A DNA stretch of 32,000 nt. Origin: Candidatus Paracaedimonas acanthamoebae. Its GTDB lineage: Bacteria; Pseudomonadota; Alphaproteobacteria; Caedimonadales; Caedimonadaceae. Position 1 is the stretch's first letter. The number at the start of each line of letters is the position of its first letter. The stretch lies in assembly GCA_000743035.1 (NCBI GenBank), contig CP008939.1:1-32000 (forward strand), read 5' to 3'. A program made the position numbers and the translations under genes. The notes under the pieces were generated by a model, which was given only the letters and a program-made list of their open reading frames with translations, did not search any database and was not told the origin of the DNA. This document shows, piece after piece, positions 4,854-24,510 of the stretch.

Positions 4854-4964
4854 TTAAGAAATTAAAATATTCTCATATTTTTATATTGAATAAGAAATAT
4901 GAGAATATCTTTTATCTGTATTAAATTATTTTCCTGTTACATAGGAAGTGTTTCGAGAATTAAA

Positions 4965-8600: not shown

Positions 8601-8797
8601 GCCAATTAAAACTAAATAATAGTAATATCCAGCATGATCCGGGAAAGAACACTCTCAAGTTCGACTTAAGAAGAGAAGAAAGCCTAATAATCCTGACTTT
8701 CCAAAAGCCTTAGCGGCTAAGTAACTTTATCAAGAAAAGAACTTCCCTATTTAAGAAATCTGTCAAAGATTAGACGGCCCTGATACTGTGTTAAGGA

Positions 8798-9775
8798 TCA
8801 AGGATTAATTTTAAGAATTTCAGGGTTAAAAACTGTTTTATATTTCAGCACCCCGAAGCATATATGGAGAAGCTTTCTCATAATAGCGCCTATAATCACC
8901 ATAGTATGTTTACCTTTTTTCTCTAATTTTTGGACAAAGGGTTGAAGAAGCGGATTATGATTTTTAGCTGCGATAGCTGGAAAATAAAGAGCTTTCCTTA
9001 AAGAAGAAGAACCTATTTTAGAAAGACAAGATCTTCCTTTAACAGAAGTCCCTGATGTTCTATGAGATGGCGTAAGACCAGCATATGCAGCTAATTGCCT
9101 GGCACTTTCTAAAGAAGAAAGTTCAGGGATTTCTGCAAGAATAGCTATGGCTGTTATTTTGCCAATGCCTGGAATGCTTTGAAGGTTCCTACAATCCTGG
9201 TTTAAGCTCTCTTTTGAAGAGACCACTTGGTCTATAGCAACATTAACGACGTTAATTTGCTTCTCTATATGCTTGATGAGGTTTTGATAAACTTTCTCAA
9301 CACTTTTTGGAAGGCAGTCTTTGGTTTCTAAGAAGTTTCCAACTTGAGTATGTTGTTCCTTCAAGTTTTGCAAGCATCGATAAAGAGATCTTAATTCTTT
9401 TAACATGGGCTCTTTAGGCTTATAGGCTCTTAACTCATTCTTGCTCGCATACTCTGCAATCAGGTGAGCATCAACCTCATCTGTTTTATGGCGACTAAGC
9501 TTGCTTCTGGCAAAGGCTTTAATACAAGCAGGATTAACAATATGAACTTGATGTCCTTGTTCATAGAGATAATCTGCAAGCTTCTCTCCATAGCTTCCTG
9601 TGGCTTCCATACAGGCCTTAACTTGTTCAATACCTTGTGCTTGCAGCCACTTTGTTAGACCTATGAAGCCTTTAATGTTATTAGAGACCTTGTATTTTTT
9701 ATAAGACGTATGGAGGAGAAGAGCGATAGAAAGGTCTTTCTTAGAAACATCTATCCCTAATATAGCCTCATTCAT
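8798..9775 (-). CDS. IS110-family DEDD transposase/recombinase
   Basis: GIDVSKK..., MEATGSY, HKTDEVDA (RuvC-like DEDD). C-terminal LQSIPGIGKITAIAILAEI... YAGLTPSHRTSGTS domain. Confidence 0.9.
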   Translation of the reverse strand: MNEAILGIDVSKKDLSIALLLHTSYKKYKVSNNIKGFIGLTKWLQAQGIEQVKACMEATGSYGEKLADYLYEQGHQVHIVNPACIKAFARSKLSRHKTDEVDAHLIAEYASKNELRAYKPKEPMLKELRSLYRCLQNLKEQHTQVGNFLETKDCLPKSVEKVYQNLIKHIEKQINVVNVAIDQVVSSKESLNQDCRNLQSIPGIGKITAIAILAEIPELSSLESARQLAAYAGLTPSHRTSGTSVKGRSCLSKIGSSSLRKALYFPAIAAKNHNPLLQPFVQKLEKKGKHTMVIIGAIMRKLLHICFGVLKYKTVFNPEILKINP

Positions 9776-10000
9776 CTTTTTTTTCCTTCCCTCTACTGAT
9801 ATGATTATTTGAGTCTTTAGCTTGTCATGTGAATTCAGAATAAGGTAGAACCTTTTCTTAAGATACTGTTCAGCTCTAGACCAATTGGAAGAGGGCTCTT
9901 ATCAGAACCTCAGATTTGGTGTCTTGTTGCAAATACAGAGTCACCTCTTCCAGCCTACAAGGCTTAGCTACTCTCTCATAGGCTCCTCAGCAACATACAT
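9776..10000 (-). ncRNA. Candidate bridge-RNA-type non-coding RNA in the IS110 5' end (copy A)
   Basis: ~225-nt non-coding leader upstream of the recombinase. An 8-bp stem ggaagagg/cctcttcc encloses a region containing tttgcaacaag, which resembles the insertion target TTGCAAC. Assignment rests on analogy with IS110/IS621 biology. Confidence 0.3.
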
Positions 10001-10001
10001 G

Positions 10002-10095
10002 TTGCAAGTTTGTAGATAAAGTTACAATTTAGTCTAAGGAAATACAGATCTTTTTAAATTATGGAGATAGTTGGGATGTAGATATTAAAAATAAC
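10002..10095. mobile_element. Degenerate right-end remnant of a type-2-like IS6 element, between IS110 copy A and the IS26-like element
   Basis: ttgcaagtttgtagataaagttacaatttagtctaaggaaatacagatctttttaaattatggagatagttgggatgtagatattaaa parallels the reverse complement of 7750-7838. Confidence 0.5.
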
Positions 10096-10924
10096 GGCCC
10101 TGTTGCAAAAATATTATTTGAGCAGATTTAGGTCTTTTTGCAGTTTTCAATTAAACAGTATAGACACTGAATTGTCGGTTAACGAGACGGATTTCTCCCT
10201 TGAGTCCTTGGCGATATTTCCAAAGATCCATCTGTCCCTTTTTAAACATCCTCATCACTTCAAACCCTTTAATCGTTGCATAAGCTGTTTTCAAAGATTT
10301 AAACCCTAGAGTTGGTTTAATCAGTCGTTTGAGTTTACCATGATCAGCTTCAATAAGGTTATTGAGATACTTAATCTGTCGATGCTCAAGGTCTTGAGGA
10401 CAAAGTCCTTCCTTCTTTAATTCTTTGATCGCTACAGCATAAGTAGGTGCCTTATCTGTATTAATTTTACTTGGTTTTTCCCATTCCTTAAACTTTCTTA
10501 AAGCCTTTGAAAGAAACCGTTTGGCAGCACTGATATTTCTTGTCGATGAAAGATAAAAGTCTATAGTACGCCCTCGCTTATCAAGAGCTCGATAAAGGTA
10601 AGCCCATTTACCCTTAACTTTTACATAAGTTTCATCAACTCTCCAGCTATAGCCAAGCCCTGGTTTCCAATACCACCTGAGCCTTTTCTCAATCTCTGGA
10701 GCATAAGTGATTACCCATCTATTAAGAGTTGTATGATCAACCGTAATGCCTCTTTCTTCCATCATTTCTTCAAGGTCCCGATAGCTGATCCCGTATTTAC
10801 AATACCACCTTACGCATCCAAGAATAATATCCCCTTGAAAATGACGCCACTTAAAATCATTCATCCAATAGTCCTCTAATTTTTAGAAACTCTGAACGAA
10901 GACAAAACTTTTTGCAACAGGGCC
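10096..10924 (-). mobile_element. IS6-family insertion sequence (type 1, IS26-like IRs)
   Basis: IRs ggccctgttgcaaaaa (10096-) and tttttgcaacagggcc (-10924), compare the IS26 IR GGCACTGTTGCAAA. The flanking 8-mers aaaataac and aaagtatt differ, so there is no target-site duplication. Confidence 0.85.
10151..10864 (-). CDS. IS6-family (IS26-like) DDE transposase
   Basis: MNDFKWRHFQGDIILGCVRWYCKYGISYRDLEEMMEERGITVDHTTLNRWV..., WRVDETYVKVKGKWAYLYRALD, TDKAPTY, NNLIEADHGKLKR. Confidence 0.9.
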   Translation of the reverse strand: MNDFKWRHFQGDIILGCVRWYCKYGISYRDLEEMMEERGITVDHTTLNRWVITYAPEIEKRLRWYWKPGLGYSWRVDETYVKVKGKWAYLYRALDKRGRTIDFYLSSTRNISAAKRFLSKALRKFKEWEKPSKINTDKAPTYAVAIKELKKEGLCPQDLEHRQIKYLNNLIEADHGKLKRLIKPTLGFKSLKTAYATIKGFEVMRMFKKGQMDLWKYRQGLKGEIRLVNRQFSVYTV

Positions 10925-13900
10925 AAAGTATTTACCTTGTGTTTACGAACGGTCTTTTAGAACCCGGTGTGTCTCGCTTTATCATTAAGAATTATGCTTT
11001 AACTCAGTCTCTTCTTTCTCCTGAAAAGATTCTTACACCTTTTTCACCCCAAAAGGTTGAACGCACAGATCAAGGAATTGAGGTGACCACCAATCCTTGT
11101 AAATGGGATTATCAGTTGATCAGCAAGCCCATCCCCTTGACGTTAGCATCTGCTCTTGAGCTAAGCTTTGAAGCAGACCTCAAAGAAGGAGGGTTTGCTG
11201 TAAAGTTTCTCTCGCAAGATAAGAAGAAATTCCTAGGCGCTAAGTACTATCAAAAACCTGGTCTTGTTAAAGATACGCTCAAACTTCCTTTTGGGGTTTC
11301 TGATAAAAGTATTTACCTTGTGTTGACAAACAGCCTCCTAGAACCCGGTGTGTCTCGCTTTATCATTAAGAATTATGCTTTAACTCAGTCGCCTCTTTCT
11401 CCTGAAAAGATCCTCACACCTTTTTCTCCTCAAAAGGTTGAGCGCACAGACAAGGGAATTGAGGTTATTACCAATCCTGGCAAATTGGATTATCAGTTGA
11501 TCACCAAGCCGATTCCCCTGACGCTGGCCTCTGCTCTTGAGGTGGCTTTTGAAGTCGATCTTAAGGAAGGAGGCTTTGCTGTAAGGTTTCTCTCCCATGA
11601 TAAGAAGAAATTTTTAGCCTCTAAGTACTATCAAAAACCCGCCCTTGTTAAGGATACGCTCAAGCTTCCCTTTGGAACTGATGATGAAAGTATCTACCTT
11701 GTGTTTACAAATAATTTGCTAGAGCCAGGGGTGTCTCGCTTTATCATTAAAGATTATACTTTAATTCAACCAAGTGCTCCACAATCTTCACTTCAAAGTG
11801 AGTCACCATCGCCCTCTTTACCTTTACAAAGGAGAGTGAGAAAGGAACTTCCTTCTCAGCCCGGTTTTATCTATAAGTTTCCACCACAACCTCTTTATAA
11901 TCCTTGGCCTGGTGCTTCTCAAGCAGATGTCACCTTTGAAGTCGAAAAGCTTGAGGATAAGAGTCTTTATTTTATTGGACGTGAAAACAACAACATTATC
12001 TTAGATCATACCAGTCTGCCAGACCAGCTTCAGACTGTGCGCAAAGGTCCCTTCCAGTTAGAACGACACAATGATCTTATTTTTTGGTCTTACCTTGGGC
12101 TTGATCATTCTAGAATGGCTTTTGCCGTGAAAGAAAATGGCGATATCATATTTATGCCTCTGAGAACAGAGACCGGGTACCAAGCGCATAAAGTTTGGAG
12201 CTTTAGAACGACAGGAACCCTTATTAACCAAGCAGATTCTTGCTTTTATTTTTCTTACTTCCAGGCTTCACAAATTCATAATTTTCGTTTGCTGAAGTGT
12301 TTTGGCATGGAGTCGCAGCAATCTTACTTTTTCAATAAGGGAGTCCTGCATTTAGGGGATGACACGGGGATAGCGTCTCTAAGCGTGTATCAAGAATATT
12401 TGCCACTCATTGATGAAAAGGCTGAACCTCATTACCAAAAAGATGTGATTGATGATCATGGGGTTACACTTGCTGAGAAAGGCCTTAAGATTGGACACAT
12501 GACCCATCGTGTTCATCGCTTTACTGAGGCCCAAAAGCTAGAGCTTGATGAAGCGCCTCTTGAGGTTTATCAACAACTCAATGTTGAAGGCCCGATTACC
12601 GGTACCACGCCTTCCATGATCAATCATGGCAGCATGAGTGCGCGTGCGATGACATCAAGCCTGAGTGTTCAAGATTGGATCAACAAGGGTGAAGTTCGCC
12701 TGTCACTACCCTCTGAGATTCGAGCTCAAAATGAGATGGACAACAGCGGTGTTATCCGCAGTATAAGTAGCATCACACTGAGCTCCCGCAAGAAGCCTAA
12801 ATCTTTGGGCATGGTGATTTCCGATGATCAAATTAAAGCGATGATCGACGATATTCTCACGCTTGAGGAGCAAGAGCTTGTCTTTGGAAATGCCCGCTTT
12901 TTGTCGAAAAAGCGCAGGCTTGTTGTAGATATGGTCCATCATACAGACCACTATTTAAACACGATCACCCATCATTATGTCCAAGATAGAGGGTTGCAAC
13001 GATTAATAAGGAAAACCGAGACAGGCTATGTCTTTCAGAAGCGGACTTCTGAAAGGTCTCAAAAAGTCATTGAAAAAGGCGTTATAGACATCCCTGAAGA
13101 GATCGAGGGCTTGGATCGAGCCTTTCATGATCGCCAGCGCCTTTTATCAAAATTGAGAGAAGGGATCAAAGATCGCATACGTGAGCTGATGCGTTTTTAT
13201 AGCGGCATTCAAGACCTCAGCCGAATGTTATCCTCTGTGCTTTCTGGCATGGGGCTGGATAGCGAGGAAGTGAGCGACATTACGAATGACCCTAGCCTCC
13301 AATCTCTTCTGTTAGCTTTGGGCTTGCCAGAGAAGGATGCTTTTGGGCTGGTTGAAACTCTAGATGATCCTCAACGGCTACTTTATCATTCACTTACGGC
13401 CATGGCTCAAGGATTCCAGACCACGGCAGTTCAGTGGATCATGAAGAATCCTGATGCTTTCCTTAATATTGTTTGTGGAGGGGTATCCATTGTAAATTTT
13501 TTGGATAAAATAATACCCTATTCTCCAACAAAGTATCCTTTAGCACAACTTGGATTGCAAGGCGCCAATGCCTTTTGTGGAATAAGAGGAGCACAAAAAA
13601 GCCTCCCTAAGATCCAAGCATATTTCAGCAAACAGCATGATAGTAAGACTGGTGGGATAAGCTCTTCAAGCAGTAGTACTAAGGAAGCACTCCATGGATC
13701 TTCTCAAACACCAAAAAATGTTGCTTTGCATGAAAAACAGAAAGTAGAATTGAGGAAAGAAATGCAAGCGCCGCATGTTGAGGATGCAAGTTTAAAAAAG
13801 CTTATAGAGTGGAATTATAAGACAACTGCGGATGTAGGAAGCGGAAGCACTGCTGATGCAGTTAGATACGAAATAAAAACGGGTTTACCAGTTAAAGGCA

Positions 13901-14037
13901 AGTTTCATACTCAAAAAGCTCAAGAGACAGTGAGCAAGCTTGAAAAATGGATTAGCCAAAACCCAAATGCACATACTAAAGATAAGGCCGCTGCTGAAAA
14001 TGTGTTGAGAGATCTTAGAGATGCTTTAGGAGAATAA
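10925..14037 (+). CDS. Large polymorphic-toxin-like protein, 5'-truncated by the IS at 10096-10924
   Basis: The open frame runs out of the IS IR, and the track start (TTG at 10912) lies inside the IR. Architecture: about 2.2 x 127-aa repeats, a ~470-aa unique region, and a conserved handle (13120-13640) that recurs at 14462 and 15687. A unique ~130-aa C-terminus follows the sequence ...LPKIQAYFSKQH. Confidence 0.7.
10927..11775 (+). repeat. In-frame tandem repeat, 381-bp period (127 aa), about 2.2 copies
   Basis: agtatttaccttgtg...gaacccggtgtgtctcgctttatcattaa recurs at 10927, 11308 and 11689. The protein unit is SIYLV(F/L)TN.LLEPGVSRFIIK.Y.L.Q... Confidence 0.9.
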
Positions 14038-14041
14038 ATGG

Positions 14042-14464
14042 ATGAAATTTAGTGAGCAAAATTATAAAGATTATATACTAAGTGAACTCCCTAATTTTAG
14101 ATCTAGGATAGAAAATTATCATAGTAATTTTAAAGATCAACCGTGGAGAAATCCGACTCTATGTGGAGAGTTAATGGAGCTTGTAGACTTTTATGAAGAT
14201 TTAAAAGAAAACGAGAGAGAAAATATAGAAGAAATTAAAAAAGTTTTCATAATAGCTGAAGAATTAGCTTATCAAGGTAATGAGGAAATAAGAGGCGCTT
14301 TGGAAGTTTGCTTTTTTGAAAGTATTATTAACAGTTTAGGAACGGATGAAAAAGCATTAAGTGAATTTTTTAAGCTGCTTGGTCCTGCGTCAATTGAACT
14401 TTGTAAAAAGAATGATGCCTTTTGGGGGACAAGAACCCCAGGTTTGTATGGGAGTGATCACTGA
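14042..14464 (+). CDS. Candidate immunity protein for the toxin C-terminus
   Basis: 140-aa acidic helical ORF starting 4 nt after the toxin stop. The call rests on position and architecture. The NEEIRGALEVCFFESIINSL segment is reminiscent of helical immunity families (from memory only). Confidence 0.55.
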   Translation: MKFSEQNYKDYILSELPNFRSRIENYHSNFKDQPWRNPTLCGELMELVDFYEDLKENERENIEEIKKVFIIAEELAYQGNEEIRGALEVCFFESIINSLGTDEKALSEFFKLLGPASIELCKKNDAFWGTRTPGLYGSDH

Positions 14465-15288
14465 GCAACATTACCACTGACCCTAGTCTTCAATCTCTCC
14501 TATTAGCTTTAGGCTTGCCAGAGAAGGATGCGCTTGGGTTGGTTGAAACTCTGGATGATCCTCAAAAGCTGCTCTATCATTCTCTTACGGCCATGGCTCA
14601 AGGATTCCAGACCACGGCAGTTTAATGGATCATAAAGAATCCTGATACTTTCCTTAATATTGTTTGTGGAGGAGTATCCGTTGTAAATTTTTTGGATAAA
14701 ATAATACCCTTTTCTCCAACAAAGCATCCTTACGCACAACTTGGATTGCAAGGGGCCAATGCGCTTTGTGGGATAAGAGGAGCGCAGAAAAGCCTTCCTA
14801 AGATCCAAGCTTATTTTAGTAAACAACATACTGGAAAGCCTACAGTAGCAAGTTCAGTTGTAGAACCAGGACCTTCAAGTTCAACGTCTTCAGCACCTAA
14901 AGGCCAAACCTTTTATGTACCTCCCCGATCTCAATCAAGAATCAATATTGTAGAAGGGATAGGTAAACCCAATAAACGTGTAGAAGGAGAGACTAAACCC
15001 GGGGTTGAGAGTATATGGGGAAAACATATGAATCCTGAGCGCACTAATAAGTCTCAGTTTACAATTTCTAACGAAAGAGTAAGATCTATTTTAAGCGATA
15101 AAAAGACTATTGAGACGCCTATTACTAAAATGGGTCATGATAAAACATATGTTAGAGAAGTGGATGTCGGTAATATAATTGGTAAACTACCTGCAAAAGA
15201 TGGAAGTAAACCCACTTCTATTGTGACAATATTAACCGATGCAGAAGGAAATCTAGTTAATGTTTTTCCAGGACCATTAACATATTAG
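14462..15288 (+). pseudogene. Orphan toxin cassette 1: handle fragment plus an unrelated C-terminal domain, with an in-frame stop
   Basis: 14462-14830 is homologous to 13271-13640 (SNITTDPSLQSLLLALGLPEKDALGLVETLDDPQKLLYHSLTAMAQGFQTTAV*WIIKNPD...). TAA at 14623-14625 replaces CAG. After ...IQAYFSKQH the sequence is unrelated to the first C-terminus. The longest ORF is 14692-15288 from a TTG. Confidence 0.7.
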
Positions 15289-15291
15289 AGA

Positions 15292-15642
15292 ATGAATATG
15301 CATATTGATATAAAATTGCGGTACCGAAATGATATTATTATACCTGAAGAGCATAAATTAATAGAGCATATAACGCGAGAGAATAATGCATCTTATCTTG
15401 TCAAAGGCTATGATAATCCAGAGTTTCCTTATCTAGGAGAAGTCGAATATAATGACCCAAGCGTATTCGATGCTAACGATATGGATGCCATTATTGAAGA
15501 ATTATTGTGTATACGTAAGGAAGTTATAAATCCTGGTGATCAAGCGCATATTGATGATATTATACGGTTAGCCAAGAAATGTAAAGAAATCCCTGATACG
15601 GTGCTTACTTTTTCTGGGCATTATGAATCTATTGTTAAATAG
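15292..15642 (+). CDS. Candidate immunity protein for orphan cassette 1
   Basis: 116-aa acidic ORF starting 3 nt after the orphan C-terminus stop. The call is positional. Confidence 0.5.
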   Translation: MNMHIDIKLRYRNDIIIPEEHKLIEHITRENNASYLVKGYDNPEFPYLGEVEYNDPSVFDANDMDAIIEELLCIRKEVINPGDQAHIDDIIRLAKKCKEIPDTVLTFSGHYESIVK

Positions 15643-15686
15643 TCTACTTAAGATAAGAATTTCTTTATAGTTAAGGTTTAGATTGG

Positions 15687-16172
15687 GCATTTAATGATCG
15701 TCAGCGCCTTTTATCAAAACTGAGAGAAGGGATTTAAGATCGCATTCGGGCGTTGATGCGGTTTTATGAGGCTGCTGGCGGTGTTCAAGACCTCAGTAGG
15801 ATGTTGGTGTCTGTGCTTTCTGGCATGGCACTAGATCATGAGGAAGTGAAAGATATTACCACGGATCCTAGTCTTCAATCTCTCTTATTAGCTTTAGGCT
15901 TGACGGAGAAGGATGAACTTAGGTTGGTTGATTCAGACGACTTTCAATTAAAGCCTCTTTATAGTGCAATACTAGCTCATTCACAAAGGCTAGGACTCTC
16001 TGCTCTTGATTGGGTTAAAAATCATCCTATGGAGTTTTTTGATGGCTTTTGTACTCTTGCAAATATAGCAAGTTTTGTCCCTGTTCCAGCCATAGCCATA
16101 CCAGGAAATATTGGCAACCGTATTTGTTTAGTTGGCAAGGCTGCAATATATCTCCCTAAGTTCCAACAATAG
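15687..16172 (+). pseudogene. Orphan cassette 2: diverged handle copy with an in-frame stop and no distinct toxin domain
   Basis: AFNDRQRLLSKLREGI*DRIRALMRFYEAAGGVQDLSRMLVSVLSGMALDHEEVKDITTDPSLQSLLLALGL... parallels 13120 onward. TAA at 15735-15737 replaces AAA. It ends ...AAIYLPKFQQ*, at the position equivalent to ...SLPKIQAYF. Confidence 0.65.
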
Positions 16173-16195
16173 AGGGGAAAAGAGCCCCTCTATTG
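16167..16195. terminator. Bidirectional hairpin terminator between convergent genes
   Basis: caatagagggg aaaagag cccctctattg gives an 11-bp perfect stem with a 7-nt loop, between the orphan cassette (+) and the kinase gene (-). Confidence 0.6.
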
Positions 16196-16218
16196 CAGAG
16201 TGAAATTCATAAGCTCCT

Positions 16219-19200
16219 TTATGGCTTAAACTTCGGCGTAAAATACATAGAACGACTATCATCACGGGTATTTAAGTCTGGCTCCTCATAGGTCGCTGAC
16301 GGATGATTATCATTATCATAAGGCTTTAAGTTCGGCACAGTATACCTTGTATCCTCTGTATTATCGTTATAAGCCTTAACATAAGGGGCTTCAACACTCT
16401 CATTACTAGAGCTTAGCTCACTATCACTGTCTTCATACTCCTTCTGTAAGTCGTTATAAAGGGAAGGAAACTCTTCTCCATATCTTGATGGTGAAGGGAG
16501 CTTATCCACATACTCTGAAGGGACCTCTTGTTTATAAGCTTGCTGCGAGGGGAGTTTGTCCTCATAAGCATATGAAGTCGTTGCAGAGCTGCTGGCAGGA
16601 GCAATATTGGTATTGACGGCTTCCTTTTTAGCGGGTTGTGTTTCCTTTTCTGACAGTGCCTTCATGAAATCTACGAATAGCTCTTTAGGGGAAGACTTTG
16701 GCTTCAATTTGAGAAGCTCTTCTTGAGCTTTGACTGTTGTCCATCTCTTCCTTGGTTTAGATTCAAGCAACCCTTTGAGGACAGGAAGGATCGTTAGACT
16801 TTTAAAATTCTTTTCAACCTTCTCGTAAGCGTCCTCAAAATATTCTTCATAATAATCTGAATCACGCTTGTTCAGCATCTCTATGACATTCTTCTCAAAA
16901 CCAAAGGGATATTCATTATTGGTAATCTCTAACAAAGTGATCCCTGCCGCAAAAGCATCAGCGGCTTTTCCAGAGAAATAGGGAGCCATTTCTGTGGCTT
17001 CAAATTGGTGGCCTTTACGATCCATTGCATAACGGCAATGGGCCATACGATCAGGGGAGAAGTAGGCAAAATCACCAAGCCCACCTTTGAGGTTGTCTTT
17101 TTGTAAAGCACAGCCAAAATCACTGACATAAACTGATCCATCGGTATGCACAAGAACATTGGTTGGTTTGACGTCAAGGTGAGAGATGCCATCATCATGC
17201 ATGTTTTTAAGCCCTGTTAAGAGAGAAAGAGCAAAGTGTGTTAACAGATGATCTTTGAGTTTATTATTGGGCAGAAGCGCAAGCTTATCTTGGAAGGCCT
17301 GTCCATTGCCGAGAGCCGCTAAGGGGGTGACTTGCAATAAGAGTTCTTGCTTTGTCATATCTTGACCACGAATGGTGGTTGATCCAAAAGTTGCATTCAA
17401 AAGTTGTTTTATGTCTCTTCTATTGTCAGAGGTTGGCTTGAAATGTAAGTATTCTAACAAAGGTAAAACACCTTCTTTTTGACCTAAGCTTTCTTGTAGT
17501 TTTCCTTCACGACGAGAAGCTTTTACATTTTCTGTTCCGACAACCACTTTCATCGCATCATATTGTCTTGTCCCTCTTAGCCTTGCAGGGAAGACGCGTC
17601 CAAAATTTCCTGCCCCTAAAGTTACTTTCTTTTCATCTTCCTCATCATCTTCAAAATCAATGTTAAGGCCGGCGAGAACTTTAAGTTCTTTTGCTTCACG
17701 CCTGTCTACGTCAGGAAGAAGCACATATTCATGGCCATGCATTGCCCCTTTGATAATGATCCTTCCAGCCTCAACGCCTTCTCCCTTGGCTGTGAAAGCA
17801 TCAGCAGCCACAGCGGGAGTAGTTGGGGGAAGTTCACCCAACTCTATATCCTCATTGCCGAAAGCTCTTTTCTTGTTGTTATGACGATATTTAAGGCCAA
17901 GAATAACGGCCAAGGTCGTGCCACCTGCAAGTAATACAGTTCCACCAACAGCTCCCCCAACTGCAGCTCCTATGACTGTAGAATCGTTTGAAGATGAAGA
18001 AGGTGAGCCACTATTTCCCCCTGGTGTCGGAGAAGAAGTGGGAGCTGCTGCTGCGATAATTTCTGGTCCTAAAATGGCATAATAATTGACCGGACTCCCA
18101 CTGGAACTTTGAGAGACACGCAAAACAATAGCTGCTGTTGAGTTAGGAAGGTAAAGTTCTGCAAATTTCTCAACTGTACCTTCGGTTAAATTACTACGAA
18201 GTGAGGTAATTGAATTAAGAGTAACTTTATGTGTTGTATTAGGTTCTTGGAGAGTCGGGTTCCATTGATAAGAGTGCGTAAGTTGTTGTATGGTTGTTGA
18301 GTTTAATTGATGATTAATAATTTTTTCGACCATAGGACCATCAATAACATTAGTTGTAACCGTATATAATCCTGCATACTTCTCCACAAAATAATATGTA
18401 AGGCGAGCATAACTTGCTGATGGCAGATAGCTGGAGCATGCAAGCGGGTCGAGTCCAAGTCTTTGGAGACAGTTGATCATATTACTTGGAATCAGGTTAT
18501 TATCTTCAGCAAATTGTTGTATTGATCTGCTATTTTGTCCACTTGGATTATCGACATAGCCTGAATAAAAGGAGCTTAAAAAATTAGCAAACGATCTATT
18601 ATCTCTTTCAGACGCTGTTGAGGGTTTAATTGTATTTAATGGTGTTGCAGAGATTTTGCTGGAATTAACTCTATTAGCAACTGTTTGATTTGTAATAAGG
18701 CGTTGCCATAAAAGAGAAGAAGGACCATTTGAAGGTCTTAAAACAGCATTTCCTATACCGAAAGTATTATCATTATTCATCACTATGAGAAGTAAAAATT
18801 CGCTATTTGGCAATTGATCTAAATAAGAAAAACTTAAAGATCCTTGTTGGGCAGATGTATCAATTATGCTTATATTGGGTTGTATATTTCTTACATCATA
18901 GATGTGATAAGAAGTATCTTGATAAGATGTTCCATTAATTTGAGTTCTATTATGGCCAATGCCTGGGCCGTAAAGATTATAAAACTCTAAGGATAGATCA
19001 CTTAAAGGCAGTGTACCTATTCTAAAACTGTTAATCTCAGAGTAATACCCCGCAGAGTTTAAGTTAGGCATTAAACCTTGCAATGGATCACCTAATGCAA
19101 AACGTCTTATAGGATTTGTTAATGCAAACTGTAAATATCCATCAAAATTATTAAAGTTTAAAATGGAATCAATTCCATCTTCATAACCGCAGCAATTTAA

Positions 19201-20160
19201 AAGAGCAAAGGCACTCTCGCACTCTTTATAAGATCCATTGCATGCATCCTCTAATAATTGAGGACGTTGTGCTGCAACAGGCGTAAGGATATTCGCGCTA
19301 CCCAGAAGAAGCAAAAAAGTAATTCCTGTAGCTGCTCGGGACCAATTTATATTTCTTGGTAAATCAATATTAACCCCTAGCCTTCTGAGTACTTTTATAG
19401 AATCTTCCTGAAGGCGTCCCCCATCCAATTTTCTGTAAAGGCGTTTAACAGCCATATTTAAAAGCGGTAAATTTTCCTGGCGACATTCATAAGAGGACAT
19501 TTCTTTTAAGCATTTAGATAAAAGAAGACCTTGCCGAAATAAATTAGGCTCCTCAAATTGGCTTTCTTCATCAGAAAAGTATTGAGAAGAAGCACAATCT
19601 TTTTTAATTAAAGATGGTAGAGTTCCTTTATTAAGCGTCGAATAGAATTCAATATATGATTCAATAAATTGAGGAAGGTTTTTATCGTTAACTTCAATTT
19701 CCTGTATTTTTTTGAAATTTGATAAAATAAGTTCATGATGCGAGTTGAGGTGCTTCTTGAATTCATCAGCAGTTAAAGGATTTGAGAGTTTTGTATTAAG
19801 ATACAAAAAAAAGTCATTGAGGTTATCATAGCTAAGCTCAGCCACATGATAAAGCACTTTACTTCCTTGTTGTTGCCATCCTGGAGAGTTATGACTTTTC
19901 ATAATGGTATGCCAAGATATATTGCTTGGTTCTTGTATTTTCGTCGATGACAAATGGGTCTTTGATAAGAGAGAGGAGAAGGCCGTTGCTAATTTATTCC
20001 AAACGCTACTGATTAATGAGGGGGGTGAATCTGCTTCTTGCCGAATTGCTGAATTATTTGAGCGTGATTTATATGAATCTTCTTGAATCTCAGTCGCACC
20101 AAGCTGATGAGAAAATATATTTATAATAAATAGTATACTTAATGTTTTGAAACTAAGCAT
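16219..20160 (-). CDS. Receptor-like membrane protein with a eukaryote-type Ser/Thr kinase domain
   Basis: Signal peptide MLSFKTLSILFIINIFSHQLGA. ~700-aa ectodomain. Ser/Pro linker, then a Gly/Ala-rich TM (VIGAAVGGAVGGTVLLAGGTTLAVILGL, about 17893-17975) followed by KYRHNNKKR. Kinase motifs: GAGNFGRV, AMKV (Lys about aa 871), HLDVKPTNVLV (Asp aa 996), DFG (aa 1014), DAFAAGITLLE. Tyr-rich acidic tail. Confidence 0.85.
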   Translation of the reverse strand: MLSFKTLSILFIINIFSHQLGATEIQEDSYKSRSNNSAIRQEADSPPSLISSVWNKLATAFSSLLSKTHLSSTKIQEPSNISWHTIMKSHNSPGWQQQGSKVLYHVAELSYDNLNDFFLYLNTKLSNPLTADEFKKHLNSHHELILSNFKKIQEIEVNDKNLPQFIESYIEFYSTLNKGTLPSLIKKDCASSQYFSDEESQFEEPNLFRQGLLLSKCLKEMSSYECRQENLPLLNMAVKRLYRKLDGGRLQEDSIKVLRRLGVNIDLPRNINWSRAATGITFLLLLGSANILTPVAAQRPQLLEDACNGSYKECESAFALLNCCGYEDGIDSILNFNNFDGYLQFALTNPIRRFALGDPLQGLMPNLNSAGYYSEINSFRIGTLPLSDLSLEFYNLYGPGIGHNRTQINGTSYQDTSYHIYDVRNIQPNISIIDTSAQQGSLSFSYLDQLPNSEFLLLIVMNNDNTFGIGNAVLRPSNGPSSLLWQRLITNQTVANRVNSSKISATPLNTIKPSTASERDNRSFANFLSSFYSGYVDNPSGQNSRSIQQFAEDNNLIPSNMINCLQRLGLDPLACSSYLPSASYARLTYYFVEKYAGLYTVTTNVIDGPMVEKIINHQLNSTTIQQLTHSYQWNPTLQEPNTTHKVTLNSITSLRSNLTEGTVEKFAELYLPNSTAAIVLRVSQSSSGSPVNYYAILGPEIIAAAAPTSSPTPGGNSGSPSSSSNDSTVIGAAVGGAVGGTVLLAGGTTLAVILGLKYRHNNKKRAFGNEDIELGELPPTTPAVAADAFTAKGEGVEAGRIIIKGAMHGHEYVLLPDVDRREAKELKVLAGLNIDFEDDEEDEKKVTLGAGNFGRVFPARLRGTRQYDAMKVVVGTENVKASRREGKLQESLGQKEGVLPLLEYLHFKPTSDNRRDIKQLLNATFGSTTIRGQDMTKQELLLQVTPLAALGNGQAFQDKLALLPNNKLKDHLLTHFALSLLTGLKNMHDDGISHLDVKPTNVLVHTDGSVYVSDFGCALQKDNLKGGLGDFAYFSPDRMAHCRYAMDRKGHQFEATEMAPYFSGKAADAFAAGITLLEITNNEYPFGFEKNVIEMLNKRDSDYYEEYFEDAYEKVEKNFKSLTILPVLKGLLESKPRKRWTTVKAQEELLKLKPKSSPKELFVDFMKALSEKETQPAKKEAVNTNIAPASSSATTSYAYEDKLPSQQAYKQEVPSEYVDKLPSPSRYGEEFPSLYNDLQKEYEDSDSELSSSNESVEAPYVKAYNDNTEDTRYTVPNLKPYDNDNHPSATYEEPDLNTRDDSRSMYFTPKFKP

Positions 20161-20363: not shown

Positions 20364-21062
20364 TCAAAAGGTGTGTTTAATATAAACCGTAGCTTTATTA
20401 ACATGTGATAGAGATTTTATAGCCACACTTCCAATATTATTCTTATCCATTATATTATATGATAGTTTTTTATATCTAGCTTGAGAGAATTCCCCCCCTA
20501 CTGATATGTTTTTGTTAACAGGGGTTTCAACTCCAAATCCAAAACTACCACCATTTAAATACTTAGATGTGCTTCCTTTCCCCAATAAAGGCAATATTTC
20601 TGTTTCAGATTTCCACTTTGATCTTAAAATTCCAAGCTTTATATAAGGGAGCCATTCTTTAAAGAGGTATCCTAAACGTAAAGAGGCACCATAGCTATGA
20701 GTTGTTTTAAAAGTAGATCCTACTGGTTCTCCATAATTTATTGCTGTCCAAGCTTTTCCTTTTGCACGATCAAAAGAGCCTTCTAGCTCTATTCCACTAT
20801 AAAGCTTATTATCAAAAAGATGCGCATATAAAATGCCAGCACCAATAGCGCCACCCTTGATAGAAATATTCGAGGAGTCTTTTATGCTGTTTAAAGCTGC
20901 TATTCTAGAAATGATAGCACGATTTGTTTTAGCTTCCCCACTCATATACCCTCCTCGCACTAAAACAGAAAAGCTATTTGAAGAACTTTTAATCCCCCCA
21001 GCTTTAGCATAAAATGGAAAAGTCAATACTATAAGACTTAGCAATTTAGATGTTTTAATCAT
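20364..21062 (-). CDS. Outer-membrane beta-barrel protein (OmpA-beta-barrel / Omp25-like class)
   Basis: Start placed at the ATG with an aaggaa RBS (the track start at 21077 is a TTG). Signal peptide MIKTSKLLSLIVLTFPFYAKA. Alternating amphipathic strands, Gly/aromatic-rich, C-terminal ...YIKHTF. Confidence 0.65.
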   Translation of the reverse strand: MIKTSKLLSLIVLTFPFYAKAGGIKSSSNSFSVLVRGGYMSGEAKTNRAIISRIAALNSIKDSSNISIKGGAIGAGILYAHLFDNKLYSGIELEGSFDRAKGKAWTAINYGEPVGSTFKTTHSYGASLRLGYLFKEWLPYIKLGILRSKWKSETEILPLLGKGSTSKYLNGGSFGFGVETPVNKNISVGGEFSQARYKKLSYNIMDKNNIGSVAIKSLSHVNKATVYIKHTF

Positions 21063-21087
21063 GTTCAGTTCCTTCAAAATTTACTTC

Positions 21088-22374
21088 TTATGAGTTAATA
21101 TTATTAATGTAAGTTGCTATATCGTTTAAATTATTTAATCCAGTTGGAGGTATATGTGGAAAGGCCCCCTGGGTACGAAATGCTCCTGCTATATTATTAG
21201 TAATTATATTTATCAGATTTTGGACCCCTTGCTGCATAGTTTGTAAATCATTTTGAGCTTGATTACGTTCTGCTATGATTTGCTCGGCCGTGAGAAGAAT
21301 ATTAGAGCCTACTGCAGGATTAACAACTGTCCTTAATTGCGTCATCGCCTCAGGCAAGGAAGCTGCTCCATTATTGATCTCTGTCTTTGCTTGAGTGATA
21401 ACATCTTGCGCCTGTTGTAAATCATTTTGAGCTTGATTACGTTCTGCTATGATTTGCTCGGTAGTGAGAAGAATATTAGAGCCTACTGCAGGATTAACAA
21501 CTGTCCTTAATTGTGTTATTGCTGCAGGCAAGGAAGCTGCTCCATTATTGATCTCTGTCTTTGCTTGAGTGATAACATCTTGCGCCTGTTGTAAATCATT
21601 TTGAGCTTGTTGTAGATCATTCTGAGCTTGATCACGGTCTGCTACAATTTGTTGAGTGGCCAGAAGAATATTAGAGCCTACTGCAGGATTAACAACTGTC
21701 CTTAATTGCGTCATCGCCTCAGGCAAGGAAGCTGCTCCATTATTAATCTCTGTCTTAGCTTGGGTAATAACATCTTGCGCCTGTTGTAAGTGTTGTCTGG
21801 CTTGGTTGCGATCTGCTACCATTAGCTGGGCACCATCCCTTAAATTAATACCAGGAATAATATTCTGGACTACTTGAATAGCTGGAATTAAATCAGGAGC
21901 GTTATTGCCATAAACTTCTATTCTTGCCTGATTAATAATATTTAGTAATGTTTGTAATCTTTGTTGTAAAGCCTGAGCACGCGTATGTAAATCGCCGTTT
22001 CCACCAAGATCTGCTTCAACAGTAGCCAATCCTAACGCAATGGTAAGAGAATTCGAATTAATAGTATTTTTAATACTTGTGCCTTTTGTCGTGAGAGTTG
22101 CTCCAGTGATATTTCCCATAACAACCAAAAGGCCATTTACATCCTGTCGCAGCTTCACATCTTCCCCATTGAGATCAATATCTTCTATTAATTTTAGAAG
22201 TTCATCTATAGGACAATTATATTTAATGGCAAGATTAGCTAATCTTGTTTTCCCAGATGAAGAAAATGCAAGTAACTTTTCCCGTTGCTCTTCATTTAGA
22301 GAAGCTTTTAAAGGATAGGATAAAGACATTATCCCTACTAATGATATGAGTAGTTTTATAGATAATTTAAACAT
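21088..22374 (-). CDS. Secreted coiled-coil protein with 58/65-aa tandem repeats
   Basis: Start placed at MFKLSIKLLISLVGIMSLSYPLKA. Three repeats of QAQDVITQAKTEINNGAASLP.A(M/I)TQLRTVVNPAVGSNILL...Q.I.A.R.QAQNDLQ. Confidence 0.7.
   Translation of the reverse strand: MFKLSIKLLISLVGIMSLSYPLKASLNEEQREKLLAFSSSGKTRLANLAIKYNCPIDELLKLIEDIDLNGEDVKLRQDVNGLLVVMGNITGATLTTKGTSIKNTINSNSLTIALGLATVEADLGGNGDLHTRAQALQQRLQTLLNIINQARIEVYGNNAPDLIPAIQVVQNIIPGINLRDGAQLMVADRNQARQHLQQAQDVITQAKTEINNGAASLPEAMTQLRTVVNPAVGSNILLATQQIVADRDQAQNDLQQAQNDLQQAQDVITQAKTEINNGAASLPAAITQLRTVVNPAVGSNILLTTEQIIAERNQAQNDLQQAQDVITQAKTEINNGAASLPEAMTQLRTVVNPAVGSNILLTAEQIIAERNQAQNDLQTMQQGVQNLINIITNNIAGAFRTQGAFPHIPPTGLNNLNDIATYINNINS
21241..21830 (-). 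repeat. In-frame tandem repeat, 174-bp period (one unit 195 bp)
   Basis: attagagcctactgcaggattaacaactgtccttaattg recurs at 21301, 21475 and 21670. The extra 21 bp duplicates QNDLQQA. Confidence 0.85.
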
Positions 22375-22720
22375 ATGATGCCCCCATGCCCCGAATGTTA
22401 AAAGCAAAAGTTAGCAGCATTCATTATAGAACGCATTAAATTTTTTTCGATTGTCTCTGTCAGCAATAAGTTGCTTATTCTTTTTAGCTAAAGTGAAATA
22501 TTTCTTTTTTTACAACTCATAGCTAACATCAAGAAAAAATGTGCATTATAAAATTCATTTTTATGCTTTGTAACAAATACAATCAAACAGGGTGAAATTT
22601 ATAGATTCTAATAAATAGGCAGTAATTTATGCCCTATTCAAGAACCATCATAAAACTAAATTTTCCCTGATCTTTTCATTAATATACTCGCCTGATAGCA
22701 TTTAAGACATCCTACCTCCC

Positions 22721-23211: not shown

Positions 23212-23228
23212 TGATACTGTGTTAAGGA

Positions 23229-24206
23229 TCAAGGATTAATTTTAAGAATTTCAGGGTTAAAAACTGTTTTATATTTCAGCACCCCGAAGCATATATGGAG
23301 AAGCTTTCTCATAATAGCGCCTATAATCACCATAGTATGTTTACCTTTTTTCTCTAATTTTTGGACAAAGGGTTGAAGAAGCGGATTATGATTTTTAGCT
23401 GCGATAGCTGGAAAATAAAGAGCTTTCCTTAAAGAAGAAGAACCTATTTTAGAAAGACAAGATCTTCCTTTAACAGAAGTCCCTGATGTTCTATGAGATG
23501 GCGTAAGACCAGCATATGCAGCTAATTGCCTGGCACTTTCTAAAGAAGAAAGTTCAGGGATTTCTGCAAGAATAGCTATGGCTGTTATTTTGCCAATGCC
23601 TGGAATGCTTTGAAGGTTCCTACAATCCTGGTTTAAGCTCTCTTTTGAAGAGACCACTTGGTCTATAGCAACATTAACGACGTTAATTTGCTTCTCTATA
23701 TGCTTGATGAGGTTTTGATAAACTTTCTCAACACTTTTTGGAAGGCAGTCTTTGGTTTCTAAGAAGTTTCCAACTTGAGTATGTTGTTCCTTCAAGTTTT
23801 GCAAGCATCGATAAAGAGATCTTAATTCTTTTAACATGGGCTCTTTAGGCTTATAGGCTCTTAACTCATTCTTGCTCGCATACTCTGCAATCAGGTGAGC
23901 ATCAACCTCATCTGTTTTATGGCGACTAAGCTTGCTTCTGGCAAAGGCTTTAATACAAGCAGGATTAACAATATGAACTTGATGTCCTTGTTCATAGAGA
24001 TAATCTGCAAGCTTCTCTCCATAGCTTCCTGTGGCTTCCATACAGGCCTTAACTTGTTCAATACCTTGTGCTTGCAGCCACTTTGTTAGACCTATGAAGC
24101 CTTTAATGTTATTAGAGACCTTGTATTTTTTATAAGACGTATGGAGGAGAAGAGCGATAGAAAGGTCTTTCTTAGAAACATCTATCCCTAATATAGCCTC
24201 ATTCAT
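23229..24206 (-). CDS. IS110-family DEDD transposase/recombinase (protein identical to 8798-9775)
   Basis: The 325-aa translation is identical to copy A in the ORF track. Confidence 0.9.
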   Translation of the reverse strand: MNEAILGIDVSKKDLSIALLLHTSYKKYKVSNNIKGFIGLTKWLQAQGIEQVKACMEATGSYGEKLADYLYEQGHQVHIVNPACIKAFARSKLSRHKTDEVDAHLIAEYASKNELRAYKPKEPMLKELRSLYRCLQNLKEQHTQVGNFLETKDCLPKSVEKVYQNLIKHIEKQINVVNVAIDQVVSSKESLNQDCRNLQSIPGIGKITAIAILAEIPELSSLESARQLAAYAGLTPSHRTSGTSVKGRSCLSKIGSSSLRKALYFPAIAAKNHNPLLQPFVQKLEKKGKHTMVIIGAIMRKLLHICFGVLKYKTVFNPEILKINP

Positions 24207-24431
24207 CTTTTTTTTCCTTCCCTCTACTGATATGATTATTTGAGTCTTTAGCTTGTCATGTGAATTCAGAATAAGGTAGAACCTTTTCTTAAGATACTGT
24301 TCAGCTCTAGACCAATTGGAAGAGGGCTCTTATCAGAACCTCAGATTTGGTGTCTTGTTGCAAATACAGAGTCACCTCTTCCAGCCTACAAGGCTTAGCT
24401 ACTCTCTCATAGGCTCCTCAGCAACATACAT
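24207..24431 (-). ncRNA. Candidate bridge-RNA-type non-coding RNA in the IS110 5' end (copy B)
   Basis: Same sequence as 9776-10000. Confidence 0.3.
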
Positions 24432-24432
24432 G

Positions 24433-24510
24433 TTGCAACTTTGAACAAAAGGATGATTTTATCTAAGGAAATATAGATCCTTTTAAATTTTGGATATAGT
24501 TGGAGCCTAG
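24433..24510. mobile_element. Degenerate right-end remnant of a type-2 IS6-like element abutting IS110 copy B
   Basis: ttgcaactttgaacaaaaggatgattttatctaaggaaatatagatccttttaaattttggatatagttggag parallels the reverse complement of 7760-7838. Confidence 0.5.

Follow-up and report, generated by a model that had tools for sequence, protein, structure and literature searches.

How did a bacterium that lives inside amoebae come to encode a protein with the layout of a eukaryotic receptor kinase, and on which side of its membranes would such a kinase act? The question is raised by one open reading frame in the 32,000-nucleotide stretch of DNA analyzed here (the window), which belongs to a plasmid of Candidatus Paracaedimonas acanthamoebae, an intracellular bacterium and Acanthamoeba endosymbiont. 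The product is 100% identical to AIL13787.1 (IM40_10340), a plasmid-encoded protein recorded for this organism as "hypothetical protein". An initial annotation of the locus described a signal peptide, a 700-aa ectodomain, a single transmembrane (TM) helix, and a Ser/Thr kinase, and suggested either placement in a host-facing membrane or gene transfer from a protist host.

Organization of the Locus

The kinase gene, its parts, and its envelope neighbors are as follows.

16219..20160, minus strand: receptor-like Hanks-type Ser/Thr kinase gene, an ORF of 1313 aa with exact bounds
20095..20160, minus: N-terminal Sec-type signal peptide, aa 1-22 (heuristic call; K5, core LSILFIINIFS, end L-G-A before T)
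19336..20094, minus: N-domain, aa 23-275, mostly helical by prediction
19270..19326, minus: internal hydrophobic segment, aa 279-297, GITFLLLLGSANILTPVAA followed by QRPQ, resembling an internal signal peptide
18043..19269, minus: main extracytoplasmic domain, aa 298-706 (~410 aa), mixed alpha/beta with two beta-rich halves and 6 cysteines
17977..18042, minus: stalk rich in Pro, Ser, Thr, and Gly, aa 707-728
17893..17976, minus: Gly/Ala-rich TM helix, aa 729-756, with repeated small-xxx-small spacing (heuristic call)
17866..17892, minus: basic stop-transfer patch KYRHNNKKR, aa 757-765
17632..17865, minus: juxtamembrane or pre-kinase extension, aa 766-843
16723..17631, minus: protein kinase domain, aa 844-1146 (Pkinase, PF00069)
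16222..16722, minus: acidic, Tyr-rich C-terminal tail, aa 1147-1313
16435-16482, minus: conserved tail motif YGEEFPSLYNDLQKEY, aa 1227-1242
16167..16195, no strand: hairpin with a perfect 11-bp stem and a 7-nt loop, read from the sequence
20364..21077, minus: gene for a small outer-membrane beta-barrel protein (OMP) of 237 aa with a signal peptide (PF13505)
21088..22407, minus: gene for a secreted helical repeat protein of 439 aa with a signal peptide

A Shine-Dalgarno-like GGGGAG lies 8 nt 5' of the kinase gene's ATG. The hairpin sits between the ends of the kinase gene and ORF 15753-16172, which converge on it, and could possibly act as a bidirectional terminator, though no T-run follows it. 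The plasmid region around the kinase gene is rich in F-box and LRR genes, which are typical of host-directed proteins.

An Intact Hanks-Type Kinase

The kinase domain matches PF00069 with an E-value of 1.2e-21 and 77.8 bits against a cut-off of 31.7, close to the bounds first proposed for it (about 16771-17637). All of the Hanks motifs named in the initial annotation were recovered, that is, GAGNFGRV in the G-loop (aa 849-856), AMKV with K871, HLDVKPTNVLV (aa 994-1004), DFG (aa 1014-1016), and DAFAAGITLLE from aa 1068; E885 and an SPD motif are present as well. The four closest full-length homologs show no variation at K871, E885, D996, K998, N1001, D1014-G1016, or GAGNFG (849-854), and soluble relatives likewise keep H994, D996, K998, N1001, and DFG invariant. 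Alignment therefore gives no sign of the loss of catalytic residues for which the initial annotation had allowed. With all catalytic residues present the kinase is predicted to be catalytically complete, and these intact residues, together with a match above the curated threshold, place the protein by sequence in the Hanks-type (eukaryotic-like) superfamily.

The catalytic loop is non-RD (HLD), and HLDVKPTN is of the Ser/Thr type, not the Tyr type (HRDLAARN or HRDLRAAN), on which ground we rejected a receptor tyrosine kinase assignment. An insert of ~35 aa precedes the kinase hinge. The best kinase matches are remote, at 38.7 bits with the single sequence and 94.5 bits, to CaMKK2, with a family profile searched against the PDB; eukaryotic kinases fill the first 60 places among the PDB profile matches, the best of them of CAMK/STE type and not receptor kinases. 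Nor is there close likeness to PknB-like kinases, grouping with which was the other outcome for which the initial annotation had allowed: NF033483, the model of the PknB/Stk1 PASTA kinases, reaches 40.7 bits where 450 are required and aligns only with the catalytic loop (aa 967-1041). Tyr makes up 7.6% and Asp plus Glu 18.8% of the last 170 aa, and the tail motif has stayed together as a conserved block, YGxELPSLYxxLQxxY.

The Outer Region and Its Topology

The earlier statement that the N-terminal region holds no recognizable domain is borne out: no family in Pfam, NCBIfam, or PHROG matches the region N-terminal to the kinase, and aa 1-843 contain no Pfam match, PASTA included. In a PDB sequence search, aa 270-706 found no match and aa 23-275 only chance-level ones (E 0.35 and 1.3). 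The AlphaFold2 (AF2) model of the main outer domain is confident (pLDDT 84.2, pTM 0.84), and Foldseek found no match to it in two structure libraries (TM-score <=0.15); these searches yielded no sequence or structural relative of this domain outside the kinase family. In the N-domain pLDDT is only 50-70 across aa ~80-245.

Several features give the outer domain an extracytoplasmic signature. The heuristic signal-peptide pattern is common to all 13 relatives, with Ala or Ser at the position equivalent to A22. The outer-domain cysteine count is even in every member (4-10), and cysteines vary in pairs, residues 307/314 being jointly lost in P0021 and P0022 and 614/628 jointly gained in four members. 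This pairwise gain and loss indicates disulfides and thus an oxidizing compartment. The Gly/Ala-rich helix (V729-L756) and the positive patch behind it stand as first described, and among the 11 members that have a TM its outer flank is neutral or acidic in all and its C-flank net-positive in 10. On these heuristic signal and TM calls, the proposed receptor-kinase-like layout is retained: signal peptide, extracytoplasmic region, Pro/Ser/Thr stalk, TM, juxtamembrane segment, kinase, and tail.

Two elements of the initial annotation need revision. The ectodomain is not a featureless stretch of ~700 aa, as it is split by the hydrophobic segment at aa 279-297, which had been overlooked; and since this segment is kept in all 13 family members examined, a single TM is not established. 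It has a Kyte-Doolittle value of 1.70, against 1.87 for the TM, and carries the marks of a signal peptide: a net-positive or neutral N-flank (net-positive in 12/13 members), a hydrophobic core (13/13), and an AxA-like end that is small-x-small in most members (VAA before Q, AAA before L, SEA before Q). The AF2 model packs it against neither the N-domain nor the main outer domain. What the heuristics yield is thus a signal peptide, outer cysteines in pairs, and a TM whose inner flank is basic, plus a second conserved hydrophobic segment that fits no simple topology model. If the N-terminal signal peptide is functional, this segment must cross the membrane and not stop in it. On a crude additive scale the segment (+3.4 kcal/mol) and the TM (+1.2 kcal/mol) are both only marginally hydrophobic, so that full export of the protein may be possible.

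A Bacterial Family with Envelope Partners and Mosaic Paralogs

A profile of the outer region found only 17 matches in 1.84 billion proteins, and every source or context looked up was bacterial. About 14 family members were found among these 1.84 billion representative proteins, all on bacterial contigs, and all full-length relatives have bacterial neighbors. The three named sources are of Holosporales type, namely the plasmid, a Caedibacter MAG, and a Nucleicultricaceae MAG, and some members are chromosomal, adjoining hisS-prfA-prmC-clpB. Judged from sequence, these proteins make up a small, bacterial, undescribed family of Holosporales receptor kinases, which we define here by a signal peptide, N-domain, internal hydrophobic segment, paired-Cys domain, TM, and kinase, all present in the window protein. 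The protein also carries the signature of the kinase subfamily (PLAxxGNG, HLDxKPxN, DFGCA, and GDxxYFSP[DE]R). Soluble relatives within this subfamily lack a signal peptide and could be effectors; the pre-kinase extension is also found in three soluble or short-TM relatives (P0005, P0008, and P0010). A 2025 review mentions no kinase (PMC11909080).

The position of the gene next to a secreted protein and an OMP gene, already remarked upon in the initial annotation, reflects a real association. The genes for the repeat protein, whose three tandem ~58-65-aa repeats are encoded at nt 21241-21830, the OMP (OMP_b-brl), and the kinase are adjacent in seven of eight distinct loci (the window, L001, L005-7, L008, L010-11, L013, and L014), in three gene arrangements and on both chromosomal and plasmid backgrounds. 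None of the loci examined encodes a PP2C phosphatase, an FHA protein, or another obvious bacterial substrate, and no secretion-system gene adjoins any family member. The neighboring AAA+ genes encode ClpB (1348 and 1279 bits against a cut-off of 1232) and fall below the ClpV cut-off.

Paralogs within one genome are mosaic: their TM-kinase-tail modules are 90-99% identical, and their outer domains only 23-38%. Between the window protein and its paralog AIL13725.1 the outer domains share 25-27% identity, against 82-91% for the TM, juxtamembrane segment, and kinase. At the DNA level, P0002 and P0020 are about 50% identical up to codon ~738 and then 87-98% identical to near the stop codon; between these two modules the OMPs share 36% identity, and the repeat proteins can hardly be aligned. 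The switch from divergent to homogenized sequence falls at the stalk (aa 707-728). Sensor sets, comprising outer domain, OMP, and repeat protein, thus appear to diverge together while the kinase output stays alike, and the family illustrates cleanly how recombination at a domain boundary can occur naturally in a receptor.

Comparison with Known Kinases

In known bacterial transmembrane Hanks kinases the kinase comes first and the sensor last. The PASTA kinases PknB, Stk1, and PrkC resemble the window protein in being membrane-spanning Hanks Ser/Thr kinases that join a single sensor region outside the cytoplasm to a catalytic domain within it, and activation by dimerization is plausible in both. 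Their polarity is opposite, however, in that they lack a signal peptide, start with the kinase in the cytoplasm, and end with the sensor, whereas the window protein has its kinase at the C-terminus, lacks PASTA, is non-RD, and has an outer domain of no known family. PpkA, which with TagQRST forms the threonine phosphorylation pathway of the Pseudomonas aeruginosa H1-T6SS, likewise joins a Hanks kinase bearing a periplasmic domain to outer-membrane and periplasmic accessories for envelope sensing, but it has the opposite polarity and a vWA periplasmic domain. T6SSs are reported to be widely conserved in Holosporineae (PMC11909080). We rejected a PpkA/TagQRST pathway here, as neither the window nor loci L001-L014 contain T6SS genes, Fha, or PppA and the AAA+ neighbors are not ClpV.

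Legionella LegK1-4, Coxiella CstK, and Yersinia YpkA are also eukaryote-like Ser/Thr kinases of amoeba- or host-associated bacteria, encoded among F-box/LRR-type genes; they differ in being soluble T4SS or T3SS substrates that lack a signal peptide and an ectodomain-plus-TM layout. The Dot/Icm effector kinase LegK1 model (NF043056) gives 22.4 bits against a cut-off of 550 and was discarded. In eukaryotic receptor kinases (plant RLKs, animal RTKs and RSKs, and amoebozoan receptor-like kinases) a signal peptide leads into a cysteine-bearing ectodomain and a stalk, one TM with a basic flank on the inside, and then a juxtamembrane segment, kinase, and Tyr-rich tail, an order that the window protein would share on the heuristic calls. 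They too carry variable ectodomains on a conserved kinase, and the non-RD catalytic loop is like that of plant pattern-recognition receptors. Against this, no ectodomain homology was found, the kinase similarity is remote, the window protein has an extra internal hydrophobic segment, and its gene lies in a bacterial operon-like cluster with an outer-membrane barrel. Homology to a eukaryotic receptor-kinase family was rejected, given that the outer-profile relatives looked up are all bacterial and the kinase matches remote CAMK/STE ones.

Function and Origin

We favor the hypothesis, to which we give an even chance of being right, that the protein is a bacterial type-I (N-out, C-in) receptor Ser/Thr kinase within a conserved three-gene envelope module. 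The Sec signal peptide would export the N-terminal part, placing the disulfide-stabilized ~410-aa domain and the Pro/Ser/Thr stalk in the periplasm; the Gly/Ala-rich helix would span the inner membrane; and everything C-terminal to it, from the juxtamembrane segment through the non-RD kinase to the acidic Tyr-rich tail, would remain in the bacterial cytoplasm. The outer domain may detect a cue from the envelope or the host cytosol, probably with the co-encoded barrel and repeat protein, and ligand-driven dimerization mediated by the helix would switch on the kinase to phosphorylate itself and bacterial cytoplasmic targets. One genome carries at least two modules, whose anciently diverged sensor sets would feed the same recombination-homogenized output. 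Counting against this hypothesis are the conserved internal segment, the marginal hydrophobicity of both membrane segments, the F-box and LRR surroundings, the soluble relatives that have no signal peptide, and the lack of a gene for an obvious bacterial substrate in the loci examined.

The protein, or its kinase half, might instead end up on the surface of the bacterium, in a host membrane, or in the host cytosol and use host ATP to phosphorylate host proteins, with the tail as a docking or phospho-acceptor region. Life as an amoeba endosymbiont, the F-box and LRR genes of the plasmid region, the best profile matches to eukaryotic CAMK/STE-type kinases, the marginal hydrophobicity of both membrane segments, and the strong divergence of outer domains and envelope partners, as expected of host-exposed proteins, are consistent with this, as are signal-peptide-less relatives that share the pre-kinase extension and Tyr-rich tails. 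We nevertheless consider it unlikely, if well worth keeping in view, because proteins in which a Sec signal peptide precedes a TM with a strongly basic C-flank normally sit in the inner membrane with the C-terminus in the cytoplasm, no secretion-system gene adjoins the family, the neighboring ClpB-like proteins are not the T6SS ATPase ClpV, the catalytic loop is not of the Tyr type, and the block-conserved tail motif would fit host mimicry no better than a regulatory or intramolecular element. The host-facing membrane initially suggested loses ground, since the basic flank, the paired cysteines, and the conserved envelope partners point to an inner-membrane receptor. Quite unlikely in our estimate is a bacterial-invented receptor-kinase signaling system at the host interface, in which interchangeable cassettes of surface and periplasmic sensors, made up of outer domain, OMP, and repeat protein, read host cues, or kinase and tail are host-exposed and act on host proteins with host ATP.

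That the internal segment functions as a signal peptide or is a site of processing, releasing a ~275-aa N-terminal protein and a receptor starting near Q298, would account for its conserved charge, core, and small-x-small end and for its lack of packing in the model; it is decidedly unlikely, as there is no conserved internal start codon, the ORF is uninterrupted in all members, and signal peptidase requires an N-in/C-out orientation that conflicts with a functional N-terminal signal peptide. Recent acquisition from a protist host, the origin raised at the outset, is highly improbable despite the eukaryote-like layout, the eukaryotic nearest solved kinases, and the non-RD loop, which is typical of eukaryotic immune receptors. 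The few outer-region relatives and all full-length ones lie on bacterial contigs, some of them chromosomal, the similarity to any solved eukaryotic kinase is remote, and the gene's GC content (0.35-0.44) falls within the range of the whole window; the family is moreover old in these bacteria, with outer domains down to 23-30% identity and conserved operon partners.

The bacterial receptor kinase that we favor would have a sensor-first, eukaryote-like polarity that is not known to us, or from the literature searched, in any conserved bacterial family described so far, and the family combines three unusual features: a sensor domain unmatched in the sequence families and the two structure libraries searched, dedicated outer-membrane partners, and near-identical kinase output across divergent sensors within a genome. 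If the host-interface reading were true, the endosymbiont would possess an RTK-like system arisen by convergence, its ectodomain fold new and its double-signal-peptide topology without precedent. As Holosporales symbionts resist genetic manipulation and no account of their signaling is known to us, this kinase family offers a concrete, testable handle on how they sense or manipulate their amoeba host.

Predicted Topology of the Receptor-Like Kinase

The minus-strand ORF at 16219-20160 encodes 1313 amino acids that are 100% identical to GenBank AIL13787.1, a record on a 169-kb contig that bears the label "hypothetical protein IM40_10340 (plasmid)"; the organism is Candidatus Paracaedimonas acanthamoebae, previously named Ca. 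Caedibacter acanthamoebae. The initial annotation described this protein as carrying a signal peptide and a single transmembrane helix (TM). Both elements are predicted by heuristic criteria, but a third hydrophobic segment lies between them:

aa 7-25, N-terminal segment
aa 279-297, internal segment
aa 729-756, Gly/Ala-rich TM, preceded by a Pro/Ser/Thr-rich stalk

The N-terminal segment follows the Sec signal-peptide pattern in 13/13 family members, that is, a basic residue, a core of ~12 residues, and x-x-A before the predicted cleavage point. The TM is present in 11 members; all of them have a neutral or acidic flank on its outer side, and 10 have a net-positive one on its inner side.

It was also claimed that no domain can be recognized on the N-terminal side of the TM, and we agree: aa 298-706 is without a Pfam, NCBIfam, PHROG, or PDB-sequence match. 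Foldseek searches of this domain against PDB and BFVD likewise returned no match with a TM-score >0.15. An AlphaFold2 model of aa 270-706 based on a 13-sequence alignment is confident (pLDDT 84.2, pTM 0.84) and divides the aa 298-706 domain into two halves, each consisting of helix plus beta-sheet; a model of aa 1-775 built with 4 sequences was unusable (pLDDT 35). Internal duplication of the domain was rejected, as hhalign of the two halves gave a probability of 0.6%. The preceding region, aa 23-275, is predicted to be helical with low confidence. The number of cysteines in the aa 298-706 domain is even in 13/13 members and they are gained and lost pairwise, which suggests that they form disulfides and thus that this domain is extracytoplasmic. 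N-glycosylation-type sequons were not used as evidence: the outer domain has 11-12 N-x-S/T motifs versus 7-8 expected (p=0.06), and the family as a whole has 117 versus ~85 expected (69 for the reversed motif), a mild excess that we attribute largely to an Asn/Ser/Thr-rich composition and shared ancestry.

The internal segment, with a hydrophobic core of ~19 residues, is kept in 13/13 members. Its N-terminal flank is net-positive in 12/13 and most members have an AxA-like end, so that by sequence it resembles another signal peptide, 275 residues into the protein. The AlphaFold2 model leaves it unpacked. With a working N-terminal signal peptide, the internal segment cannot be a stop-transfer helix; such a helix would leave the kinase outside and the disulfide domain in the cytoplasm. 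This leaves three readings, namely that the segment crosses the translocon and resides in the periplasm or at the membrane surface, that the N-terminal signal is unused, or that the protein is processed.

Kinase Domain

The Hanks motifs quoted in the initial annotation are all found in the protein, and Pfam Pkinase covers aa 844-1146 (E=1.2e-21). A loss of catalytic residues, which had been considered as grounds for doubt, is not seen. The G-loop (GAGNFG), K871, E885, D996, K998, N1001, and DFG 1014-1016, as well as SPD 1035-1037, D1068, and R1139, are conserved in the four closest full-length homologs, and the core catalytic residues are also invariant in soluble relatives. The arginine of the HRD motif is replaced by leucine (HLD), making this a non-RD kinase, and the D-x-K-P-x-N loop is of the Ser/Thr type. 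An insert of ~35 aa ahead of the hinge is missing from some relatives.

The best curated NCBIfam models score 49 (MAD6), 44 (LanL), 41 (PknB_PASTA), and 22 (LegK1) bits, far below their cut-offs of 450-650 bits, and the protein falls outside PknB-PASTA, LegK1, and the T6SS phosphorylation pathway. With the single sequence as query, the best PDB match reaches 38.7 bits (fly MEK, LKB1, ASK1); with a profile of the kinase subfamily, CaMKK2 reaches 94.5 bits, followed by CDPK1, CIPK, TNIK, and MARK, and the top 60 matches are all eukaryotic. Among plasmids (PLSDB), tblastn retrieved only generic bacterial kinases (24-34% identity) and megablast left the region unmatched. Judged by these searches, characterized kinases are only remotely similar; the domain is "eukaryote-like" in its matches and probably a divergent lineage of its own.

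Family Members and Mosaic Paralogs

A profile of aa 1-775 retrieved only 17 proteins from 1.84 billion representative proteins, ~10 of which are receptor kinases at full length (1270-1351 aa). In three others (P0026, P0027, and P0029) the outer region is fused to another C-terminal domain, without TM or kinase. The named sources are Paracaedimonas plasmids and MAGs assigned to "Caedibacter sp.", Alphaproteobacteria, and Nucleicultricaceae. A third homology search with the 13-sequence alignment as query found no further relatives, and a metagenome scan added one locus, L014. The kinase subfamily also occurs stand-alone or behind a short N-out TM (P0005-P0010). The pre-kinase extension is common to P0005, P0008, and P0010, the stand-alone kinases have Tyr-rich tails, and the tail motif YG-x-[ED]-[LF]-x-S-[LY]-Y-x-x-[LM]-Q-x-x-Y is present in both receptor and soluble forms. 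DUF4379 (treble-clef zinc-finger) proteins repeatedly adjoin family kinase genes (loci L005-L007, L013, and L014), and in the relative P0006 DUF4379 is fused where the kinase N-lobe would be; in the window, DUF4379 genes were not observed.

In Paracaedimonas, a different plasmid of the same genome carries the gene for a further member, AIL13725.1 (IM40_09950), and identity between the two proteins switches at ~aa 705-720.

Identity between AIL13787.1 and AIL13725.1 by region

N-domain: 25%
Outer domain: 27%
Stalk and TM: 82%
Juxtamembrane: 91%
Kinase: 90%
Tail: 80%

The same pattern holds for two proteins of a different organism, P0002 and P0020 (23% and 38% vs 88-99%). At the DNA level (L005:10001-13855 vs L013:8001-11813), these two genes are ~50% identical up to codon ~738 (nt ~2200) and 87-98% identical past it, with another drop around the stop codon; the recombination boundary is sharp and lies immediately ahead of the stretch that encodes the TM. 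Between their two modules, the outer-membrane beta-barrels (OMPs) share 36% identity, and the repeat proteins can hardly be aligned. Orthologs from different species do not follow this pattern: their outer regions are 52-64% identical and their kinases 61%. Taken together, the paralog and ortholog patterns suggest ancient sensor classes, each with its own envelope partners, and a cytoplasmic module that is kept uniform within each genome by recombination.

Conserved Gene Neighborhood

The window encodes three genes in the following order on the minus strand:

22407-21088 (-), secreted helical repeat protein
21077-20364 (-), OMP_b-brl barrel
20160-16219 (-), kinase

Arrangement at loci carrying relatives

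L010/L011: window order; distant member, chromosomal, beside hisS-prfA-prmC-clpB
L013: window order
L001: OMP then kinase; OMP 42% identical; contig end just upstream, repeat gene unconfirmed
L005-7 and L008: kinase, repeat protein, OMP
L014: repeat/OMP pair divergent from kinase
L002: kinase gene frameshifted and flanked by transposase; OMP and repeat partners missing

The noted proximity of the kinase gene to genes for a secreted protein and an OMP thus extends beyond the window, as the trio is retained in three arrangements across loci, which argues for a functional module. The L002 gene (8886-12865, Caedibacter sp. 38-128 MAG) is split near codon 550 into two overlapping ORFs with a transposase downstream, and represents either a copy in decay or a misassembly. 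A T6SS link through ClpB-like neighbors at L009 and L010 was rejected, because both are ClpB and not ClpV.

Genomic Setting

Candidatus Paracaedimonas acanthamoebae is a Holosporales endosymbiont of Acanthamoeba with a 1.7 Mb genome, 38% GC, and five plasmids (PMC11909080). In keeping with this origin, the window has a GC content of ~0.37 and many IS6, IS110, and IS4/5 transposases, along with two F-box genes and an LRR gene. A promoter/terminator scan was uninformative, with counts no higher than shuffle expectation. Further features are as follows:

443-1063 (-), weak LRR protein
2151-2415 and 2990-3254, 265-nt inverted repeat, 100% complementary
2205-2927, IS6-like transposase ORF
4899-5747 (+), F-box protein
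7827-8525 (-), F-box protein
8781-10007 and 23212-24438, identical IS110-family copies, 1,227 bp, direct orientation
10912-16172 (+), polymorphic-toxin array look-alike
14042-14464, DUF7674 protein
28650-29675 (-), YhcG/DUF1016 PDDEXK nuclease
29863-31734 (+), 623-aa ORF without Pfam hit

Eukaryote-like genes of the F-box and LRR kinds are typical of amoeba symbionts, and F-box, LRR, Sel1, and TPR genes are also close to family kinases in L005 and L013. The 13.2-kb segment between the IS110 copies contains, besides an IS6 transposase, the toxin-like locus and the entire repeat-OMP-kinase module; recombination between the copies could mediate its loss or movement. The toxin-like array includes a 1041-aa ORF whose 5' end consists of three tandem repeats of 381 nt each, with the DUF7674 gene after it. 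Further on, the 3' part of this ORF is partially copied (13271-13570 vs 14462-14761, 91%; 13108-13355 vs 15675-15931, 77-84%), each copy being followed by a small ORF, resembling orphan toxin/immunity cassettes. The inverted repeat overlaps the ends of the IS6-like ORF that it flanks and is unusually long for IS6 ends; a palindromic rearrangement or faulty assembly could account for it. The 623-aa ORF has weak phage-tail PHROG matches at aa 304-400 (phrog_14556, E=2e-9; phrog_7043 "tail protein", E=4e-7). The nuclease gene lies ~8 kb from the kinase module and has a counterpart in L005/L006 (L005 7023-7829), where it is located ~2 kb upstream of the kinase gene; chance or a common mobile context may account for this. 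Within the kinase gene, GC is 0.41-0.44 in the kinase-coding half (16001-18000) versus 0.35-0.36 in the outer-domain-coding half (18001-20000), which is consistent with separate histories or with differing coding constraints.

A Proposed Receptor Kinase of the Bacterial Envelope

The reading that we favor, giving it an even chance, is that this protein is a type-I receptor kinase of the bacterium; its outer domain would act with the OMP and the repeat protein in the envelope, and it would signal into the bacterial cytoplasm. Five features speak for this: the N-terminal signal peptide, cysteines outside that carry a disulfide signature, a basic flank on the inner side of the TM, partners in the envelope, and an output module that stays uniform. 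A role directed at the host seems to us rather unlikely; in its favor are hydrophobic segments of only marginal strength, a plasmid region with many F-box and LRR genes, the soluble kinase relatives, and the resemblance of the kinase itself to eukaryotic kinases. The initial annotation had raised transfer of the gene from a protist host. A recent transfer of this kind is not supported, and we consider it highly improbable. Eukaryotic receptor kinases are the closest in appearance, but common ancestry with them was not detected.

For a receptor kinase of the bacterial envelope, the closest systems in mode of working are the PknB-/PpkA-type sensor kinases, relative to which the polarity is reversed. 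In full-text literature searches of incomplete coverage, neither this family nor bacterial Hanks receptors of reversed polarity came up in any paper, and the word "kinase" is absent from a recent review of the Holosporales (PMC11909080). What is known here is the Hanks kinase and its use as a membrane sensor; what is unusual is the polarity, the sensor domain without detectable relatives, the dedicated envelope module, and the mosaic evolution of the family.
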